Part shown: one piece after another, positions 1 through 9,626 of the stretch
Layout of the letters: each line of letters begins with the position of its first letter
Numbering within the stretch: position 1 is the stretch's first letter
DNA from: an uncultured Acidobacteriota bacterium
GTDB lineage: Bacteria; Acidobacteriota; Thermoanaerobaculia; Multivoradales; SZUA-115
Direction of reading: 5' to 3'
DNA length: 64,000 bases
Assembly: GCA_963805975.1 (NCBI GenBank)
Contig: CAWDVR010000001.1
Location: 1,056,001-1,120,000, forward strand
Notes under the pieces: model-generated
Told to the model about the DNA's origin: nothing
The model's database searches: none
What the model saw: only the letters and a program-made list of their open reading frames with translations
Made by a program: the position numbers and the translations under genes

Positions 1-2808
1 GAATCTCCGCTCGCGGCTCCGGCCCCCGGCCACCTGGCCTACGTCCTCTACACCTCCGGGTCGACGGGCCGGCCCAAGGGGGTGATGGTCGAGCACCGGA
101 GCCTGATGGGGTACCTGCGCTGGGCGGGCGAGAGCCTGCTGGCCGGGGTGGATCACCTGCCGTGGACCACCCGCATCACCTTCGACGCCTCGCTCAAGCA
201 GCTCTTTGGCCCGCTGCTGGCGGGGCGGGCGGTGCGCATCCCGGCCCCCGGCGCCCTCTCCGACCCGGCGGCCCTGGCCGCCGCCCTGGAGGTGCCGCCG
301 GAGCTCGCCGGGCAAGGGGCCTTCAACGCCGTCCCCACCCTGTGGGGGGCTCTGCTGGACGCCATCGAGGCCGGGCAGGTGGCACCGCCTCGGGGGCTGG
401 GGCTCCTGCTGCTGGGCGGCGAGGCCCTGCCCGGCCGCCTGGTGGAGCGCACCCGGAAGGCCCTGCCCGGCCTCGAGATCGTCAACCTCTACGGCCCCAC
501 CGAGCTCACCTCCAACGCCAGCTTCGACCGCGTGGACAGCTCCGGCACCGTCACCCTGGGGCGCTCGGCCGCGGGGGCGCGGCTCCACGTCCTGGGCCCG
601 GGTCTCGAGCCCCTGCCCGACGGCGTGGCCGGCGGTCTCTACGGAGCCGGCACCGGGGTGGCGCGCGGCTACCTGGGGCGCCCGGCGTGGACCGCGGAGC
701 GTTTCCTCCCCGACCCCTTCTCCGGGGAGCCGGGGATTCGCCTCTACGCCACCGGCGACCGGGTGCGCCGCCGGCCCGACGGCCGCCTGGAGTTCCTGGG
801 CCGGCTGGACGAGCAGGTGAAGATCCGCGGTCACCGCGTGGAGCTGGCCGAGGTGGAGTCGGCGCTGGCGGCGTTGCCGGACCTGGCCGAGGTGGCGGTG
901 GCGGCCCGGCGCCTCGGCGGCGATGGAGATGGCCCGCTCTCTTTGGTGGCCTACTGCGTACCCCGTTCCGGGCGACTGCCCGCCGCCGGCGAGCTGCGCT
1001 CGGCCCTCGCGGCAGTCTTGCCCGAGGCCATGGTGCCGGCCCGCTTCGTGGAGCTGCCGGCCCTGCCGCGGCTCCCCAGCGGCAAGGTGGACCGCCGTGC
1101 CCTGCCCGCTCCAGGCGCCGGCGACGGCCTCGACGAGAGCGCCGGCGAGCCACCGCGGACGCCGCTCGAGCGCCTGCTGGCCGACCTCTGGGCCGCGGTG
1201 CTGCGCCGGCCGGTGGGGATCCACGACAACTTCTTCGACCTGGGGGGCGACTCGATCGTCAGCCTCCAGATCATCGTGCGCGCCCGCCAGGCGGGCCTGG
1301 CGCTCGAGCCGCGGCAGATCTTCGAGCAGCCCACGGTGGCGCGGCTCGCGGCCGTGGTGGGCGAGGCGCCGCCGGTGGCGGCCGAGCAGGGGCCGGTCTC
1401 CGGTCCGCTTTCTCTCACTCCCATCCAGCGGCGCTTCTTCGAGCTGGGCTTCGAGGAGGAGCACCACTGGAACCAATCCCTGCTGCTGGCGCTGCGCCGG
1501 CGGCTGGAGCCGGCCCGCCTGGGAGCCGCCCTCGAAGCGGTGGTGGAGCACCACGACGCGCTGCGCACGACCTTCCAGCGCCGCTCGGACGGTCGAGTGG
1601 AGGCCAGGATCGCCGAGCTTCCGGCACGGCTGCCGCTCTCGGTCTGCGACCTCACGGGCCTCCGTGCCGAGGGGGCTCGCGTTGCCCTGCCGGCGGTGGC
1701 GGCCCGGGTCCAGGCCAGTCTGGACCTCGCCCGTGGGCCTCTGACCCGGGCCTGCCTCTTCCGGCTGGCCGAGGGCGATCAGCTCCTGTGGGTGGCCCAC
1801 CACCTGGTGGTGGACGCGGTCTCCTGGCGCTTCCTGGTCGAGGACCTGGAGGCGGCGGTGAAGGCGCTCGAAGCTGGCGAGGCGGCCTCGCTGCCGCCCA
1901 AGACCACCTCGTTCCAATCCTGGAGCGATGCCCTGGAAAAGCACTCCCGCTCCGCGGCAGTGGTCGCCGAAGGAGATTTCTGGCGCCGGCAGGCCGGGCA
2001 TCCGGACGCGGACCTGCCCCTGGATCTGCCCGGCGACGCCGGCACGGTGGGGCAGGCCGCGAGCTTCACGGTGAGCCTGGGAGGGGACGCGAGCCGGGCC
2101 CTGCTGGACCGCCACGCCGGCGGCGAGAGGGGAGCCCCGGCCGGGTCCAGGGTGGAGGAGGCCCTGCTGGCGGCCTTGATGTCGGCGGCCTCCGGCTGGT
2201 GGGGGTCGACCGCCCTGCGGGTGGAGCTCGAAGGGCATGGCCGCGAGCCCATCTCGGGGGAGGTGGACGTCGCCCGCACCGCCGGCTGGTTCACCACCGT
2301 CTTCCCGCTGCTCCTGGAGGGTTCGCCGGGAGAGTCGGTGGCCGAGACGCTGGCGGCCGTGCGCCGCCGGCTGCGCGCGCTGCCGGGGCGGGGGCTGGGC
2401 TACGGGTTGCTGCGCTACCTGGCCGGCGGCGACGACCTGGCCGCCGCTCCCGGCGTGAGCTTCAACTACCTCGGCCGGGTGGACCTGGCGCTGCCCGAGG
2501 GCGAGATTTTCGCGCTGCTGGGGACGGGCACGGGCGGCGACCGCAGCCCGCGGGGGAAGCGCCATCACCCGCTCGAAGTGGTGGCCCTGGTGGCCGGCGG
2601 GCGCCTCCAGGCGACCTGGACCTACAGCCCCGAGCTCCACCTGGCCTCGACCGTGGAGGGCTTGGCGGAGAGCTTCCTGGCGGCGCTGGGCGAGCTGGCG
2701 GCGGTGCCGGCGCGGGAGGACGGGCCGGGCGGCGAGGCACTGAGCGGCGACGCTCTGGGCGAGCTGCTGGCCGAGCTCAACGACGGCTCCCGGCGAGGAG
2801 GGCGCTAA
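1..2808 (+). CDS. NRPS, C-terminal part (A-T-E plus COM-like tail), 5'-truncated by window edge
   Basis: Frame open from base 1: AYVLYTSGSTGRPKG (A3), NLYGPTE (A5), LPRLPSGKVDR (A10), T FFDLGGDSI, E HHLVVDAVSW, EGHGRE, RTAGWFT, FNYLGR. Hand-read code DAKNLGLSNK; Lys at 239 suggests Glu/Asp-like substrate. Confidence 0.95.
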   Translation, partial: ESPLAAPAPGHLAYVLYTSGSTGRPKGVMVEHRSLMGYLRWAGESLLAGVDHLPWTTRITFDASLKQLFGPLLAGRAVRIPAPGALSDPAALAAALEVPPELAGQGAFNAVPTLWGALLDAIEAGQVAPPRGLGLLLLGGEALPGRLVERTRKALPGLEIVNLYGPTELTSNASFDRVDSSGTVTLGRSAAGARLHVLGPGLEPLPDGVAGGLYGAGTGVARGYLGRPAWTAERFLPDPFSGEPGIRLYATGDRVRRRPDGRLEFLGRLDEQVKIRGHRVELAEVESALAALPDLAEVAVAARRLGGDGDGPLSLVAYCVPRSGRLPAAGELRSALAAVLPEAMVPARFVELPALPRLPSGKVDRRALPAPGAGDGLDESAGEPPRTPLERLLADLWAAVLRRPVGIHDNFFDLGGDSIVSLQIIVRARQAGLALEPRQIFEQPTVARLAAVVGEAPPVAAEQGPVSGPLSLTPIQRRFFELGFEEEHHWNQSLLLALRRRLEPARLGAALEAVVEHHDALRTTFQRRSDGRVEARIAELPARLPLSVCDLTGLRAEGARVALPAVAARVQASLDLARGPLTRACLFRLAEGDQLLWVAHHLVVDAVSWRFLVEDLEAAVKALEAGEAASLPPKTTSFQSWSDALEKHSRSAAVVAEGDFWRRQAGHPDADLPLDLPGDAGTVGQAASFTVSLGGDASRALLDRHAGGERGAPAGSRVEEALLAALMSAASGWWGSTALRVELEGHGREPISGEVDVARTAGWFTTVFPLLLEGSPGESVAETLAAVRRRLRALPGRGLGYGLLRYLAGGDDLAAAPGVSFNYLGRVDLALPEGEIFALLGTGTGGDRSPRGKRHHPLEVVALVAGGRLQATWTYSPELHLASTVEGLAESFLAALGELAAVPAREDGPGGEALSGDALGELLAELNDGSRRGGR

Positions 2809-2810
2809 CC

Positions 2811-5800
2811 GTGCTGCAAGAGAGCGACGTCGAGGCCCTGCACCCCCTGTCCCCCCAGCAGCAGGGGATGCTCTTCGAGTGGCTGCGGGCGCCGGAGTCC
2901 GGGGTCCACGTCGAGCAGTCCCTGTTCACGCTGGACGATGGAAGCGGCCAGGGAGGTCTGGACCTCGCCGCTTTCCAGGAGGCCTGGGGGCGGCTGGCCG
3001 AGCGTCACGCCATCCTGCGCACCGCGTTCGTCTGGGAGAACCGCCGGGAGCCGCTGCAGGTGGTGCTCCGCCGGGCGGAGATCCCCATCGCGGTCGAGGA
3101 CTGGCGGGAACGGCCGGTGGAGGCAGCGCTCGCAGCTTTTCTCGAGGCCGATGCCCGCCAGGGCCTGCCGCTGCACCGGGCGCCGCTCATGCGCCTGGCC
3201 CTGTTCCGCTGTGGCAGCGGCCGGAGCCTCCTGGTGTGGACCTCCCACCACATCCTCCTCGACGGCTGGAGCCGCAGCCGGATCTTCGGCGAGCTGCTGC
3301 CGCTCTACGGTGCCCTGGCCCGGGGAGAGGCGCCGCCGGTGCTGCCTCCGGTGCGCCCCTACGGCGACTACGTCTCGTGGCTGGGAGAGCAGGACACGGC
3401 CGCGGCGGCCGGCTTCTGGCGCCGCCAGCTCGCCGGCCTCGCCGGCCCCAGCGGACTGCCACTGGAGGAGGGCCGCGCGGCTTCGGTCGCGGGAGAGCGG
3501 TACGGGTCCCTGAAGCTGGGTCTCGGTGCCGAGGCGACACGGGGCCTGGAGGAGCTCGCCCGGCGGCGGCGGGTGACGCTGAGCACGGTGGTCCAGGGGG
3601 CCCTGGGCCTGCTCCTCGCCCGCTACGGCGGCCGTGAGGACGTCCTCCTCGGCATCACGGTCTCCGGCCGCCCCGGCGGCCTGCAAGGCGTGGAGGAGAT
3701 GGTGGGGCCCTTCCTCAACACCTTGCCGCTGCGGCTGGCGGTGCCCGAGGGTGGTGCCTTCGACGCCTGGCTCGGTCGAGTCCAGGCCGCCGCCCTGGCG
3801 CTGGCCTCGTACCAGCACTGCTCCGAGGGCCAGGTCCACGCCTGGAGCGGCCTGCCGCCGTCGGCGCCTTTGTACGAGGCGGTGCTGGTGTTCGAGAACT
3901 ACCCCCTGCTGGAGGACGGCTCGGCAGTAGGGGAGCTGGGCTTCCGCATCTCCGGCCTGGAGCAGCGGGGGGCCCGCACCAAGTACCTGCTCACTTTCCT
4001 GGTGTTCGCGGAGCAGGAGCTCTCCTTCGAGCTGGTCTACGACGGCCGGCGCCTGGGGCCCGAAGGCGCCCGGCGGGTCGCCGATCAGCTCGCCGGCCTC
4101 CTGCGCACCGTGGCCCAGGGGCCCGGCACCGATCTCGGGGCGCTGCGCGCGGCGATCGCCGACGAGGAGCTGCCGCGCTGCCGGCCGGCGACGGCCGGTG
4201 AGGTGGACTCGACGCCGCCCCGCACCGCCGTCGAGCGGCTGCTGGCGCCGGTCTGGGCTCGGGTCCTGGGTGTCGAGGGGCTGGGAGTCCACGCCAGCTT
4301 CCTCGAGCTCGGCGGGCACTCGCTCCTGGCGCTGGAGCTGGCGGGCGAGAGCCGCCGCGCCCTGGGCTGCGAGGTGCCTCTGCGCCTGCTCTTCACCGAT
4401 CCCAGCGTCGCCGGCGTGGCGGCGGCCGTGCTGGAGGCCGAGGCAGGCCAGGCCCCGGAGACGGTGGCGCGGATCATGGGGCCGGGAGAGCCGACAGCTC
4501 CACTGACCGGGCTGGCCCCCGAGACCCAGGACCGGCTGTGGGAGGCGCTGGTCGCCGCCCGCTCCGGGCAGGCCGAGCCGCCGCCGGCCCCGCCGCACAT
4601 CGAGCCCCGCCCGGGCGAGCGCCACGAGCCCTTCCCCCTGACCGGCATCCAGACGCTCTACTGGCAGGCCCGGGGCGGGCTGGCGCCGACCGACACCCAC
4701 GGCAACAACCTGGTGGTGGAGTTCGAGATCCCGGGTGCCGGCGAGGGGTTGGTGGCGGCGCTGGAAGCGGCGCTGGGGCACCTGGTCGAGCGCCACGCCA
4801 TGCTGCGCGCGGTCTTCTCTCCCGACGGCACGCAGCGGGTGCTGCCGGAGGTGCCCCGACCCTCGATTCGGCGCCTCGATCTGCGGTCGCTTGCCGCGGG
4901 GGAAGCGGAGGCCCGGGTGGCGGCCCTGCGCTTCGAGCTGCGCCACCGCCGGGCCGCTCCCGACCGCTGGCCCCTCTTCGAGGTGATCGCCCACCTGCTG
5001 CCCGGGGAGCGCCTGCGCCTCCAGTTGCGCATGGAGGCCCTGCTGCTGGACGGCGACAGCCGGGAGCGCCTGTTCCAGGAGCTCCTGGCCCTGGTCCGCC
5101 GTCCCGACCTCGCCCTGCCTCCCCTGGGGGTGACCTTCCGGGACTATGCCGTGGGCTGGCGCCGGCTCGCCGCCCAGCACGGAGACTTCCGCCGCTCCCG
5201 CCAATACTGGCTCGGCCGGCTGCCGCACCTTCCGGCCCCCGCGACGCTGCCCACCCGCGGCGGCGGCCCGCCTTGGCCCCGGCGCTTCGCCCTGGAGAAG
5301 GAGACCGCCCGCTTGCTTCCGGCCGGGGAGTGGGCGGCGGTCAAGACACGAGCGGGGGAGCGGGGCCTGACACCCTCGGCGGTGGTGGCCGGCGCCTTCG
5401 CCGCGGTTTTGGGCCATGCGATCTGGGGCCACGCGGCGCGAGACGAACCTGGCGGCGGGCGCAGCTTCACGCTGCCGGTGGTGGGCAACTTCCGCCCTCC
5501 CTTCCACCCCGACCTCGAAGGCGTGGTGGGCAACTTCGACACCCTCTACCCGGTGGCGGTCCGCGACGCCGCGGCACCGCTGGTGGAGATCGCCCGGCAG
5601 CTCCAGGAGGAGCTGATGGCGGCCTTGGAGCACCCTTACTTCTTCGGCCCCGAGGCCCTGCTCCAGCTCGCCCGGCGCCACCCCGGCACCGGGGCCACTC
5701 CGGCGGTGGTCTTCAACAGCCTGGTGGAGTTCAACCACCCCCAGCACCGGCAGCGGCTGCTGGCGGCCAAGGGCGAAGCTCCGTTGGGCGAGCAGATCGA

Positions 5801-6020
5801 CCTCAGCATCAACATCCCGCAGGTGATCTTCAACGGCACGATCGCCGAGACCCTGGACGGCGACCTCATCGCCCTTTGGCAGTGGATGGACGAGGCCCTC
5901 GCCCCTGGAGTGGCGGCGGAGGTGCGGGACGGGTACCGCCGGCTCCTCGTCTGCCTGGCGCGGGCGCCCGAGCCGTGGGACCTGCCGTTCGAGGAGGCAG
6001 TCCTCCCCTCATCGCCCTGA
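2811..6020 (+). CDS. NRPS subunit C(DCL-type)-T-Cy-like, no adenylation domain
   Basis: GTG 2 nt after the upstream stop, GGAGGG SD nearby. HPLSPQQQGMLF and HHILLDGWS (C after E), FLELGGHSL (T), then Cy-type motifs EPFPLTGIQ..YW, WPLFE, EALLLDGDS, TFRDY, PAVVFNS, PQV. Confidence 0.9.
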   Translation: MLQESDVEALHPLSPQQQGMLFEWLRAPESGVHVEQSLFTLDDGSGQGGLDLAAFQEAWGRLAERHAILRTAFVWENRREPLQVVLRRAEIPIAVEDWRERPVEAALAAFLEADARQGLPLHRAPLMRLALFRCGSGRSLLVWTSHHILLDGWSRSRIFGELLPLYGALARGEAPPVLPPVRPYGDYVSWLGEQDTAAAAGFWRRQLAGLAGPSGLPLEEGRAASVAGERYGSLKLGLGAEATRGLEELARRRRVTLSTVVQGALGLLLARYGGREDVLLGITVSGRPGGLQGVEEMVGPFLNTLPLRLAVPEGGAFDAWLGRVQAAALALASYQHCSEGQVHAWSGLPPSAPLYEAVLVFENYPLLEDGSAVGELGFRISGLEQRGARTKYLLTFLVFAEQELSFELVYDGRRLGPEGARRVADQLAGLLRTVAQGPGTDLGALRAAIADEELPRCRPATAGEVDSTPPRTAVERLLAPVWARVLGVEGLGVHASFLELGGHSLLALELAGESRRALGCEVPLRLLFTDPSVAGVAAAVLEAEAGQAPETVARIMGPGEPTAPLTGLAPETQDRLWEALVAARSGQAEPPPAPPHIEPRPGERHEPFPLTGIQTLYWQARGGLAPTDTHGNNLVVEFEIPGAGEGLVAALEAALGHLVERHAMLRAVFSPDGTQRVLPEVPRPSIRRLDLRSLAAGEAEARVAALRFELRHRRAAPDRWPLFEVIAHLLPGERLRLQLRMEALLLDGDSRERLFQELLALVRRPDLALPPLGVTFRDYAVGWRRLAAQHGDFRRSRQYWLGRLPHLPAPATLPTRGGGPPWPRRFALEKETARLLPAGEWAAVKTRAGERGLTPSAVVAGAFAAVLGHAIWGHAARDEPGGGRSFTLPVVGNFRPPFHPDLEGVVGNFDTLYPVAVRDAAAPLVEIARQLQEELMAALEHPYFFGPEALLQLARRHPGTGATPAVVFNSLVEFNHPQHRQRLLAAKGEAPLGEQIDLSINIPQVIFNGTIAETLDGDLIALWQWMDEALAPGVAAEVRDGYRRLLVCLARAPEPWDLPFEEAVLPSSP

Positions 6021-6037
6021 CCGCGAAGGAGCTTGCC

Positions 6038-7741
6038 ATCGCCCCCCTCCTCCACCTCTTGCGCTTCCTGCTCCGCTTCACGCGCCACGTGCACTTCTCC
6101 CGGCTGGGAGTGGGGCTGGTGCTGGCCGCCGGCCTGGTGGCCGGCGCCGCCAACATCCTGCTGCTGGCGATCATCAACTCCGCCCTGGGCTCCCTGGGCT
6201 CGCCCAGCCGCTTCCTGGTCACGGCCTTCGCCGCGTTGTGCGTGCTGATGCCGGTCACCTGGTTCGCCTCCCAGTACCTGATCTTCGCCCTCAACCAGCA
6301 GGTGCTCTCGGACCTGCGCATGCACCTCGCGAAACGCATCCTGGCCACCCCGCTGCGCCGGCTGGAGGAGGTGGGGCCGGGGCGGCTGCTGGCCACTCTC
6401 ACCGAGGACGTGGGGGCGATCTCCCAGGCCCTCCTGGACATTCCGCTGCTGTGCCTGAACGGCGCCATCGTGCTGGGTTGCCTGGCCTACTTCGCCTACC
6501 TCTCCTGGCCGGTGCTGCTGGGCTTCGTGGTGGTGATGGCCCTGGGGCTCGCCAGCTACCAGCTTCCGCTCGCCCGGGCCACCAGGCACTTCTCCGAGGG
6601 CCGTCGCCACTTCGACCAGATGGTGGGGCACCTGCGGTCGCTGACCGATGGCACCAAGGAGCTCAAGGTCCACCGGCCCCGGCGGCAGGCCTTCGTCTCA
6701 GAGCACCTGGAGGCCAGCGTCCAGGGCTACCGCCGCGCCAGCGTGCGGGGCGGCAAGATCTTCGCCGCCGCCACCGGCTGGGGGAGGGGAGTCTTCTTCG
6801 TGGTGATCGGCCTGGTGCTCTTCGTCCTGCCCCAGCAGACCACTCTCGACCGCACGGCGATCACCGGCTACGTCCTGGGGCTCCTCTACCTGATGAACCC
6901 CATCGACATCGTGCTGCGGGTGATGCCGGAGCTCAGCCGGGCCGCGGTCGCCATCCGGCAAGTGGAAAACCTGGGGCTCTCCTTGGCCGAGGAGGAGCCG
7001 GCGGGACCCGAGCCGGCGCCGGAGCGGCCGGGTGCGGCCTCAGTCGGCGAGTGGCGCCGCCTGGAGCTGGACGGAGTGCACTACTCCTACCCCGGGGAGG
7101 AAGGTCACACCTTCGCGCTGGGGCCCCTGGACCTCGTGCTCACCCCCGGGGAGCTGGTCTTCGTGGCCGGCGGCAATGGCAGCGGCAAGACCACTCTGGC
7201 CAAGCTCTTGACCGGCCTCTATGAGCCGGATGCGGGAGAGGTCCGCCTCGACGGAACCGCCGTCACCGCCGCCAACCGGGAGGCCTTCCGGCAGCATTTC
7301 TCGGTGGTCTTCTCCGACTTCCACCTCTTCCCGAGCCTGCCGGGGCTCTGGGCGCCGGACCTGGAAAAGGCGGCGGGGGAGTACCTGGCCACGCTGCAGC
7401 TCGCTCACAAGGTCCAGGTCAAGGACGGCGCGCTGACCACGGTGGATCTCTCTCAAGGGCAGCGCAAGCGGCTGGCACTGCTCACCGCCTACCTAGAAGA
7501 TCGGCCCATCTACCTGTTCGACGAGTGGGCCGCCGACCAGGACCCCTACTTCAAGGAGGTCTTCTACCGGCAGCTCCTGCCGGGTCTCAAGAAGCGGGGC
7601 AAGACGGTGGTGGTGATCAGCCACGACGACCGCTACTACGACCAGGCCGACCGCCTGGTCAAGCTGGAGAACGGGCGCTTCGTGGAGCCCCAGGCGCCGG
7701 CGGCATCCGCCAGCGCCTCGACCTCCCGCACCAGCGCGTAG
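6038..7741 (+). CDS. Cyclic peptide export ABC transporter (PvdE/SyrD/YojI family); start uncertain (CTG 6017, ATC 6038 or TTG 6059)
   Basis: N-terminal TM helices, GTKELK, Walker A GGNGSGKTT, LSQGQRKRLAL, family signature FDEWAADQDP, ISHDD. Confidence 0.93.
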   Translation: MAPLLHLLRFLLRFTRHVHFSRLGVGLVLAAGLVAGAANILLLAIINSALGSLGSPSRFLVTAFAALCVLMPVTWFASQYLIFALNQQVLSDLRMHLAKRILATPLRRLEEVGPGRLLATLTEDVGAISQALLDIPLLCLNGAIVLGCLAYFAYLSWPVLLGFVVVMALGLASYQLPLARATRHFSEGRRHFDQMVGHLRSLTDGTKELKVHRPRRQAFVSEHLEASVQGYRRASVRGGKIFAAATGWGRGVFFVVIGLVLFVLPQQTTLDRTAITGYVLGLLYLMNPIDIVLRVMPELSRAAVAIRQVENLGLSLAEEEPAGPEPAPERPGAASVGEWRRLELDGVHYSYPGEEGHTFALGPLDLVLTPGELVFVAGGNGSGKTTLAKLLTGLYEPDAGEVRLDGTAVTAANREAFRQHFSVVFSDFHLFPSLPGLWAPDLEKAAGEYLATLQLAHKVQVKDGALTTVDLSQGQRKRLALLTAYLEDRPIYLFDEWAADQDPYFKEVFYRQLLPGLKKRGKTVVVISHDDRYYDQADRLVKLENGRFVEPQAPAASASASTSRTSA

Positions 7742-8754
7742 GGGTCCCAGGCGTCGTGAGAGACGCTCTCGAGCGGCAGCTCGGTGCCCAGGCCGAGGTG
7801 GTGGGCGTGCGCGAGGAGCACCTCCATCGCCACCTGGTCCTCGAGGGCGAAGCCGGTGGAGTCGAAGATCGTGGTCTCGCCGCGCAGATGGGCGAAGCGC
7901 TCCGGCGTCTTGACCAGCTCGTCCAGGCTCGCCCCCACCTCCTCGGGCGCCAACTGCTGGCACTCCCCCTCGCGCAGGGCCTGCTCGCGGAAGTCAGCGC
8001 ACACCCAGGCCCGGCGGACCAGCCCGGCCGGCAGCTCGGTCTTGCCGGGGAAGTCGGAGCCCACGGCGTTGATATGCACCCAGGGGCGGAGCGCGTCGCC
8101 GTCGAGGACCGCCCCCTCGCCCGGGGCCACCGAGGTGGCGGTGCACAGCAGGTCGGCGGCGGCCTCCACCTCGCGGCGGGGAGCGGGCCGCACCGGCACG
8201 CCGAACGCGGCGGTGCGCTGGGCGAAGGAGCGCTCCACCCGCGGATCGGCGTCGTGGATCAGCACCTCTCGCAGGTCGAAGCAGCGGCTCAGGGCGTGGA
8301 GCTGGGTCACCGCCTGCATACCGCAGCCCACCAGGCCCAGGACGCGGCTGTCGGGGCGAGCCAGCAGGCGGCTCGCCACCGCCGACGCGGCGCCGGTGCG
8401 CACCGCCGTGGCCAGGCCCCCGTCGGCCACCGCCAGCAGGTGGCCGTTGGCCACGTCGTAGAGGGAGAGGGTCGCCAGCACCGTGGGGATCCCCTGGCCG
8501 GGGTTGTGGGGGTGGTAGGCCACGGTCTTGATGAGCACGTTACGCCCCACGGTGAGGAGCGGCATCCACTCCACCAGGCCGGGCCGGGGAGAGTCGTAGT
8601 CGAAGCCGTCCCGCACCGGGATGCGAGTCGTGGCCGGATCGAAGGCGCGCAGGCTGGCCTCGAGCCCGGCGATCACCTCGTCCATCAGCGAGTCGAGGCC
8701 CACCGTGGCGGCCAGGCGGGCGACGTCGTCGCGGCCGAGGAAGAGGGTCTTCAA
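7636..8754 (-). CDS. Ornithine/lysine cyclodeaminase (mu-crystallin) family protein, possible pipecolate/proline synthase
   Basis: TTG start after GAGGAGG, overlapping the upstream TGA. VEWMP, K..YHPHNP, TAVRTGAASA, GxG Rossmann GCGMQA, HINAVGSDFPGKTEL, FDSTGFALEDQ. Confidence 0.9.
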   Translation of the reverse strand: MKTLFLGRDDVARLAATVGLDSLMDEVIAGLEASLRAFDPATTRIPVRDGFDYDSPRPGLVEWMPLLTVGRNVLIKTVAYHPHNPGQGIPTVLATLSLYDVANGHLLAVADGGLATAVRTGAASAVASRLLARPDSRVLGLVGCGMQAVTQLHALSRCFDLREVLIHDADPRVERSFAQRTAAFGVPVRPAPRREVEAAADLLCTATSVAPGEGAVLDGDALRPWVHINAVGSDFPGKTELPAGLVRRAWVCADFREQALREGECQQLAPEEVGASLDELVKTPERFAHLRGETTIFDSTGFALEDQVAMEVLLAHAHHLGLGTELPLESVSHDAWDPYALVREVEALADAAGAWGSTKRPFSSLTRRSAWS

Positions 8755-9626
8755 ACCGCCACCTCCTCGGACCTCCGGGTGGGGAACTCGAAGCGCTCGC
8801 CCAGCGCACGCTCCTCGATGCAGAAGCGCTTGAAGGCGACCGCCTTCTCCGCGAGCCGGGGGTCCTCCGCACGGCGGGCCAGCTCCACCAGCCAGTCGAA
8901 GACGTCGGCCGCGTGCGCCTGGCGGTAGAAATGGATCTTGCCCAGGAGGCCGACCAGGTCGCGGAAATTCTCCTGGGTCAGGAGCTTGCCCAGGGCGAAG
9001 AGGATCTGCCGGTCCTCCTGGGTCAGGGGCTCGCGCTCGACGAGGTGCGGCGAGAGCTCCCCGGAGTTCCGGTACGGGGGCCGGACCCACTCTTCGAGCG
9101 GGCGCCCGTCGTCCGAGAAATCGAGGCACAGGGAGATACGCCGGAAGTCGAAGAGGCTGCACGCCGAGTGGACCGTCCGGGCGTCGAGGAACCAGACCTC
9201 CCCCTCCCGCATGTGGAAGACCAGATCCTCCTCGGAGTGCAGGCAGCTCGGGTCCGTGGCCAGAGGCACGTTGAGGCGCACGAACGGCTCCTCGAACTCG
9301 ACGAAGTCCCGGTGCGAGATCAGCAGGCCGTTGTGGACCAGGAAGATGCGCTCCCATTTCAGGCGATCGGTATCGAAGGTCTCTGCGATGGCCTGGCCCA
9401 GGTAGGGCAGCTCGCGCCCGAGGGCAGTTTTCTGCGGCCGTCCCTCGTAGCCCCGGAACGAGGTGTCTGCCGCGTCGCCGCCGGCGTTGGCCAGCACGTA
9501 GGAGCGCCAGGTTCCGAAGGTGTATTCGGAGTACTGATCTTTGACCTGGAAATCGAGGATCCTGGCCAGCTCGGGGGCGAGCCGAGACGAGTCGAGCCGG
9601 AGCCTGCCGAGAATTTGTGACTTCAT
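8751..9626 (-). CDS. Fe(II)/2-oxoglutarate L-proline/L-pipecolate cis-hydroxylase family protein
   Basis: MKSQILG..LD..RLAPEL N-terminus, HRDF (HxD), FHMREGEVWFLDARTVHSA, R.SLCLDF, ENFRDLV.LL.K.H: hallmarks of Streptomyces cis-3-proline hydroxylase and rhizobial cis-P4H. Confidence 0.92.
   Translation of the reverse strand: MKSQILGRLRLDSSRLAPELARILDFQVKDQYSEYTFGTWRSYVLANAGGDAADTSFRGYEGRPQKTALGRELPYLGQAIAETFDTDRLKWERIFLVHNGLLISHRDFVEFEEPFVRLNVPLATDPSCLHSEEDLVFHMREGEVWFLDARTVHSACSLFDFRRISLCLDFSDDGRPLEEWVRPPYRNSGELSPHLVEREPLTQEDRQILFALGKLLTQENFRDLVGLLGKIHFYRQAHAADVFDWLVELARRAEDPRLAEKAVAFKRFCIEERALGERFEFPTRRSEEVAV

Follow-up and report, generated by a model that had tools for sequence, protein, structure and literature searches.

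In the heterocyclization (Cy) domains of nonribosomal peptide synthetases (NRPSs), a Thr/Asp pair of the BmdB type is the putative catalytic dyad, and the aspartates of the accompanying DxxxxD motif are structural (PMC9547227). Here we describe a gene of an uncultured Acidobacteriota bacterium, at positions 2811 to 6020 of a 64,000-nucleotide stretch referred to as the window (assembly GCA_963805975.1, contig CAWDVR010000001.1, positions 1,056,001 to 1,120,000 of the forward strand), whose last domain has a Cy fold, has lost this dyad and stands at the very end of an NRPS assembly line. This variant Cy domain is a conserved and apparently undescribed member of the terminal condensation-family domains. 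Judging from sequence comparison, we tentatively propose that it off-loads chains ending in dehydroalanine or dehydrobutyrine plus one further residue (…Dha/Dhb-Xaa) by closing a six-membered ring, a reading that falls a little short of an even call.

With the canonical domains of BmdB, EpoB, HMWP2 (Cy2), FmoA3 and PchE the variant shares a common fold (Z 32-38), the PFPLT, WPLF and RDY motifs, the second Asp of DxxxxD and Q411, but it differs from them in having Asn for the dyad Thr, no dyad Asp, a rebuilt gate motif, no active adenylation (A) domain behind it, and a terminal rather than internal position. By analogy, the closest precedent for its presumed off-loading would be the Cy domain of TlnC (thiolactomycin), in which the dyad Thr is likewise an Asn and off-loading is independent of a thioesterase (TE); TlnC, however, keeps and needs the dyad Asp as well as a Cys-loaded thiolation (T) domain, and works on a polyketide substrate (bioRxiv 10.1101/2024.12.18.629141). 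The C^S domain of DepA (romidepsin) also comes from a clade related to Cy, in which the catalytic residues are altered and the acyl-transfer reaction is a new one, but is set apart by its description as chain-initiating and paired with an active Cys A domain (bioRxiv 10.1101/2025.03.13.642940). Fungal CT domains, including the CT–T3 pair of GliP, resemble the variant as terminal condensation-family domains that replace a TE and are sometimes followed by an empty T domain; they carry an HxxxD His motif and have another origin, whereas the variant is bacterial, His-less and Cy-derived (PMC11546977, PMC11610984). Finally, the LgnD and AzeB lines have the same Ser/Thr–modAA–Xaa–T arrangement (modAA being a dehydrating type of condensation (C) domain) and a ring-closing release via a dehydro residue, which there falls to a TE acting upon short dipeptides that contain Pro or azetidine carboxylate, with a Baeyer-Villiger enzyme coming next (PMC10880069; bioRxiv 2026.07.17.738954); the lines considered here build long peptides with varied last residues and have no TE.

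The terminal gene (forward strand) begins at a GTG at 2811, two bases past the stop of the upstream NRPS, ends with a TGA at 6020, and encodes a protein of 1069 aa (P0003) of the order DCL–T–variant Cy. Pfam recognized two Condensation stretches and one PP-binding domain in it and nothing else, and no A, TE or reductase (R) domain was found in the gene by Pfam or in its translation. The DCL-type C domain (2823..4127, +), which has no A domain of its own, retains an intact HHILLDG motif and finds its best Protein Data Bank (PDB) matches in McyB, BacC, PvdL and TycB; the donor T domain (4224..4430, +) has its Ser intact within GGHS; and the variant Cy domain (4593..5996, +) is defined by sequence matches and predicted structure. 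The preliminary description of this DNA had claimed that the line ends without a TE or R domain and that an exporter comes next, and both are borne out by the Pfam result and by a TIGR01194 ABC transporter as the next gene; that the last module likewise lacks an A domain was absent from it. An independent soil contig from a related strain, about 94% identical and covering 3888-6695, has a single in-frame 21-nt insertion and, among the 28 of 31 differences listed, leaves both Asn codons and the stop unchanged, with 17 synonymous and 7 non-synonymous codon changes. A sequencing artefact or a frameshift into the ABC gene is therefore excluded, because two other proteins likewise stop at this domain and the related contig stays in frame.

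The scaffold motifs of the variant domain (EPFPLTGIQTLYW, WPLFE, TFRDY, YWLGRLPHLP and HPDLEGVVGNF) and its three altered motifs, EALLLDGDS (5034-5060), AVVFNS (5703-5720) and SINIPQVIFN (5805-5834), can all be read in the translation as first described. A PDB sequence search returned eight matches, all of them Cy domains, with EpoB the best (E 1e-50). In a VIA-align comparison of the AlphaFold model (pLDDT 79), rows 1-14 were all Cy structures (Z 37.9-32.5, rmsd 2.7-3.2, 416-432 residues aligned), whereas non-Cy C domains scored lower (Z ≤31.5), so the structural affinity first suggested from motifs holds in the model. In a HMMER alignment N376 falls on the Thr of PIVFT and N415 on the Asp of QVYLD in BmdB, which we take to be T1196 and D1226. 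The segment VFNSLVEFNH (5703..5738, +) thus carries N376 in place of the dyad Thr, together with the family-specific E380 and H383, and INIPQVIFN (5805..5834, +) keeps Q411, as do 58 of 58 family members, and has N415 where the dyad Asp would stand, a position at which most of the family reads L or M. In the ExxxxD-G-x-S-R motif (5034..5063, +) both D154 and the family-specific R158 are invariant (58/58). EALLLDGDS had been counted among the changed signatures, and it is present, but the D→E replacement is a conservative change at an aspartate with a structural role (PMC9547227). The HxxxD catalytic His motif of terminal C and CT domains is absent from the variant, which reads EALLLDG at that place. 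What the domain retains of a canonical Cy domain is the fold, the ancestry and DxxxxD (as ExxxxD), and what it lacks is the Thr–Asp dyad and an active Cys/Ser/Thr A–T pair downstream.

Homologue searches yielded 58 distinct variant Cy domains. These form one split nested among the Cy domains with a FastTree support of 1.0 when 39 members are set against 70 ordinary Cy and 12 outgroup domains, one split at the same support when all 58 are set against 45 others, and one split with an SH-aLRT value of 100 for 17 members against 26; choosing members by a profile made from those found early tends to yield a tight group, and the ordinary Cy domains were drawn at random from 243 sequences. The C-domain phylogeny thus agrees with a single origin of the variant within Cy. 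Four ordinary Cy domains that bear the Asn fall outside the clade in a tree whose entries did not include TlnC. The double Asn signature proposed earlier stands only in its first half: at the dyad Thr column 52 of the 58 members have N, 4 have D and 2 have T (T in 220/243 ordinary Cy), whereas the Asp column, D in 237/243 ordinary Cy and in 0/39 variants, reads L in 22, M in 15, T in 6, S in 6, F in 3 and other residues in the rest of the 58, and is Asn in this protein only (1/58). The first position of DxxxxD is D in 43 and E in 12 members and the second is D in all 58; further characteristic columns are R158 (58/58), N/D376 (56/58), E/D380 (53/58), N315 (52) and H383 (40). Other residues, chiefly T, S or N, stand in place of the gate Phe, and the N-x-T-x-F-x-R gate motif is lost. 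By alignment only, the newly invariant residues would lie near the donor entrance described in PMC9547227.

Three close pairs gave dN/dS values of 0.11, 0.37 and 0.37 for the variant domain, against 0.18-0.43 for the dead A domains found beside it in related loci and 0.14-0.31 for the associated MFS exporters, and the domain is on this basis under purifying selection. Decay is ruled out by these values, by the conserved columns and by the related strain, which keeps both the stop and the Asn codons; the suggestion that this is a repurposed rather than a decayed Cy domain is accordingly upheld by a clade of 58, by selection and by a position that is always last in the line. The variant was verified in 12 of 300 genomes of the order, which is a lower bound, and in four Chloroflexota records, with close homologues carrying Thermoanaerobaculia labels; the source genome has this one Cy-type domain only. 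Searches at E ≤1e-62, with 7-10 candidates scored per genome, found the source genome as the sole match among 401 genomes of the phylum and the seed as the sole match among 301 genomes of one Chloroflexota class, a cut-off that would overlook divergent members such as that of genome G409. An ESM Atlas search returned only generic condensation clusters, and we found no account of the clade in the literature, most subscription journals lying outside the scope of that search.

Of 26 loci carrying the variant, 3 stop at or just after the domain and 23 show downstream DNA. The variant is the last condensation-family domain of its line in 23/23, and a TE, R or intact A module follows it in the same gene in 0/23. 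Twenty of these loci have an MFS exporter, either fused or nearby, 2 have an ABC exporter, and 1 has neither. Exceptions in the vicinity are a free TE two genes on (L006), an A–TE gene on the opposite strand (L021) and a free C domain two genes beyond (G309). The usual arrangement is variant Cy–A–T–MFS, in which the A domain is dead or deleted: its P-loop is missing in 9 of 9 examined and it is shortened or gone in many loci, with a Cys-like code kept in three (DLYNLSQIW in L004-L006, versus DLYNLSLIW in active Cy modules). The trailing T domain retains its Ser. The preliminary description missed this usual partner T and the MFS exporter, as well as the upstream modAA connection set out below. 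Since the same MFS family in the source genome also follows line ends of the A-T-TE and A-T-R types, the variant Cy–T pair sits in the release slot. In the bleomycin synthetases BlmIV/BlmIII, too, a Cy domain lies at a polypeptide end and a dead A domain is present, there with a T domain loaded in trans, but the bleomycin Cy is canonical and its line continues, whereas the lines with the variant stop.

Such an ending would also suit a catalytically dead scaffold that keeps the peptidyl-T close to the exporter or, like an X domain, brings in an enzyme acting in trans, with release being spontaneous or left to a free TE. Both dyad residues and the gate motif are gone, fusion to the MFS exporter is frequent, a free TE is at hand in L006, and the dead A domain is also under purifying selection, so that conservation is no proof of catalysis. 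We nonetheless regard a mere scaffold as distinctly unlikely: no trans enzyme recurs among the neighbours scanned (many loci being short), the A domain has been freely deleted whereas the variant Cy has not, and, as placed by alignment only, new invariant polar residues line the tunnel region. Among the genes that follow the variant, a lantibiotic-dehydratase-N (PEARL-like) gene lies after the variant Cy–A–T–MFS gene in loci of Herpetosiphonaceae type (L004:11616, L005:6554, L006:10054), and a DUF3326 gene lies directly after the variant Cy–MFS fusion in two others (L158:13462, L160:4405).

On the upstream side, 21 variant domains come from loci larger than 5 kb; the C domain belonging to the last full module can be seen for 14 of them and is modAA every time, which makes 16 of 16 lines when this cluster and G409 are added. 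For ordinary Cy domains the figure is 2/72 visible (113 examined), and modAA makes up 5/59 of the other C domains in the source genome. Fisher P values for this link are tiny yet overstated, one origin having been kept across all subclades. By codes with presumed positions and substrate meanings, the A domain before modAA is of Ser or Thr type in 13 of the 14 visible cases and of Asp type in one, whereas the last A domain varies among Ser, Thr, Tyr/Phe, Pro, Leu and Asx types, with or without a methyltransferase (MT) or epimerization (E) domain. At L186:7256-14221 modAA comes after an A domain of Asp type.

The proposal that the variant Cy releases the chain thus rests on its terminal position, and the participation of a dehydro residue on the modAA link. 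The donor would be …-Dha/Dhb-Xaa-S-T, placed by the variant domain for six-ring closure onto the thioester. The nucleophile could be the enamide nitrogen, which would give an N-acyl dehydro-diketopiperazine, or the enamide beta-carbon, which would give a pyridinedione like the pyrrolizidine precursors; attack by nitrogen may be favoured, because an enolised last stereocentre would waste the E domains. Lines whose last residue is Pro (L021) or that carry a long MT (L010, L015, L122) would fit a six-membered ring with a cis amide and speak against an oxazolone or imidazolone. Both halves of this chemistry have precedents, since enamide attack closing a six-membered ring is a known TE release from Dha-Xaa-S-T (PMC10880069; bioRxiv 2026.07.17.738954), and in GliP CT–T3 a C-like domain and an empty T domain close a diketopiperazine (PMC11610984). 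The empty downstream T domain might by the same token be a way-station comparable to T3 of GliP. A Baeyer-Villiger partner was considered and rejected: the FAD monooxygenases beside three loci are kynurenine-monooxygenase-like (directly after the variant Cy and MFS genes at L002:13012, L015:14616 and L017:13710), are not general, and give no support for a pyrrolizidine-type product.

In the present cluster the last residue would be epimerised, and the A-less DCL–T unit would relay the D-peptidyl chain to the variant Cy, with the downstream T domain and its docking loop lost and an ABC exporter in place of the MFS protein. All nine A-less DCL–T units that follow an E domain lead to a Cy domain, six to an ordinary and three to a variant one (the loci are Cy-centred and hence biased), and one direct E-to-Cy case was seen. 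An A-less DCL–T unit between E and Cy is possibly a chain-relay adaptor. Within this bacterial order, the arrangement E / A-less DCL–T / ordinary Cy–A(Cys) recurs in L157, L187, L189, L191, L192 and L086.

Several points weigh against the six-ring proposal. No catalytic base stands out in the variant domain. R158 may have a structural task as substitute for the Arg that normally pairs with D154, since just 19 of 39 members have R at position 302. H383 reads R in the two closest relatives, and TlnC stays active when its equivalent Asn is mutated (bioRxiv 2024.12.18.629141). No tailoring enzyme consistently co-occurs with the variant, and the modAA link is of single origin, so that its 16 cases are not independent. 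A neighbouring A domain could load the A-less T domain here, shifting Dha to position n-2, and whether this or relay applies decides if Dha is n-1 in this cluster; two further lines in the source genome also contain A-less C–T modules, and E / DCL–T / Cy is common in company with an active Cys A domain (6 loci), so that a relay role is tentative.

The same positional and selection evidence would serve a release in which the modAA domain is an inherited cassette and the variant Cy uses another nucleophile, whether a side chain or the N-terminus in a macrocyclisation, water, or a free amine. Macrocyclisation and hydrolysis by terminal C domains have precedents (PMC11546977), an E domain ahead of DCL–T–variant Cy implies that the last stereocentre survives, and the exporter belongs to a cyclic-peptide family. 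This alternative is rather unlikely in our estimation, as modAA is present in 16 of 16 lines while the A, MT and E content of the last module shifts, and no amine-supply gene recurs. For this cluster a free hydroxy-imino acid had been suggested as the condensing amine; the hydroxylase and cyclodeaminase genes that would supply it co-occur in 0 of 34 fetched stretches around other variant Cy domains (many of them short), the related strain skips the cyclodeaminase, and the two A domains of the line that we presume from their codes to be of Pro/pipecolate (Pip) type would use such a residue. With its supply genes showing no co-occurrence with the variant, free hydroxy-pipecolate as the nucleophile is rejected. 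Taking six-ring closure and release onto other nucleophiles together, it is likely that the variant Cy takes part in release.

The origin of the trailing A domain invites a further explanation. It descends from a Cys-type A domain and the trailing T keeps its Ser, so the empty T might be loaded in trans with Cys or another residue, with which the variant Cy would condense without cyclodehydration, the thiol then adding to the dehydro residue or off-loading the chain as in TlnC and DepA; atypical Cy domains can S-acylate Cys (bioRxiv 2025.03.13.642940) and can transfer sulfur and off-load (bioRxiv 2024.12.18.629141). The variant, however, does not have the Asp on which TlnC depends, and in three members the trailing T is absent and its docking Phe is gone. 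An intact Cys-type A domain is absent from this cluster and from what was retrieved of the L010 and L002 clusters, two of the three being incomplete and loading from outside being possible. We consider trans-loading improbable.

The three T-less proteins (P0003 described here, P0004 and P0286) end at the variant Cy domain and form a clade of their own with a support of 1.0. All three have lost G27 and F/Y32 of the acceptor-T loop, a site (4668..4691, +, after helix 1) at which both read Ala in the present protein and whose Phe has a docking role for the acceptor T (PMC9547227, section 5). All three retain R158, N376, E380 and Q411. The T-less branch is long (0.46), and the domain could here be a relic, the DCL–T chain passing to a 14,225-aa NRPS–polyketide synthase (PKS)–TE protein encoded by the other strand, with its 3' end 26 kb downstream; that protein opens with an LCL-like rather than a starter-like C domain and has no NRPS gene upstream. 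We find this most improbable. The retained residues argue against it, as does the fact that P0003 and P0004 are as conserved in the variant Cy (51% identity) as in DCL (52%); the order modAA–A–T–E / DCL–T–variant Cy / ABC recurs in another family (G409); unrelated genes lie between the two clusters; and the patatin gene ahead of the second line has a homologue in G020 that comes before a ketosynthase (KS) gene, albeit in one case. The second line itself is a single open reading frame (ORF) from 32363 to 64000 (minus strand) and on to G000:C1:1131040. It contains three modAA domains and an LCL–T module that lacks an A domain, opens with an LCL-like domain, has no loading module, and follows directly upon the patatin gene. 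M28 peptidase genes that are 54% identical (L124:336-1028, minus strand; L186:1462-2481, minus strand) were also seen; such a peptidase flanks both T-less clusters of known context and no other fetched variant Cy locus.

The cluster as a whole extends about 38 kb to the left of the window, from a FAAL-like start through about eleven A-containing modules, and ends …A(Ser type)–T(GGDS)–C–A–T–E / DCL–T–variant Cy; its product is likely to be a FAAL-started lipopeptide of about 11 residues. The C domain just left of the window, after the Ser-type A, is the modAA domain (PDB matches McyA, E 1e-98, and AmbE, 5e-70), and the A–T(GGDS)–E remainder of that last full module occupies 1..2808 (+). Several frameshifts fall inside A and C domains of the upstream NRPS (G000:C1 1,018,000-1,051,000), as in other NRPSs of this genome, and are probably assembly indels. 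In one Pro/Pip-type A domain (G000:C1 ~1,047,900-1,049,500) the otherwise conserved amine-binding Asp reads Cys (code CVQHIAQVV).

Downstream, the cyclic-peptide export ABC transporter (6038..7741, +), which scores above the TIGR01194 cut-off, is 58% identical to the exporter after the T-less variant Cy of G409. An AAGGAG lies 6 nt ahead of an in-frame ATC (6026-6040), both kept in the related strain, and the start of the gene may be this ATC or else a TTG at 6059. On the minus strand follow two monomer-supply genes, an ornithine/lysine cyclodeaminase-like gene (7636..8754, start approximate), which is probably unrelated to release, and a proline/pipecolate hydroxylase-like 2-oxoglutarate oxygenase gene (8751..9626); the related soil strain joins across 7694-8773, losing most of the cyclodeaminase and keeping the hydroxylase.

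Release chemistry fixes the final scaffold of a nonribosomal peptide. Databases currently name the variant proteins 'pyochelin synthetase' or 'MFS transporter', which predicts a thiazoline that cannot form. The signature DGxSR, GNFN, FNSxxE and PQxLL picks out 58 domains and at least 26 loci from soil Acidobacteriota and Chloroflexota; the products of these loci would have a C-terminus in common, of an as yet undescribed kind. A Cy scaffold without its dyad is a natural probe of His-free bond formation by Cy domains, and the variant Cy–T proteins of some 600 aa are small enough for study with small synthetic substrates. Although doubtful in its full extent, it is conceivable that the variant represents an undescribed bacterial class of NRPS termination derived from a Cys heterocyclase, one that would read a penultimate dehydro residue, cyclise the last two residues to release long lipopeptides and pass these via an empty T domain to a fused exporter, with A-less DCL–T units as pure relays from E to Cy and a new C-terminal scaffold in uncultured Acidobacteriota and Chloroflexota.

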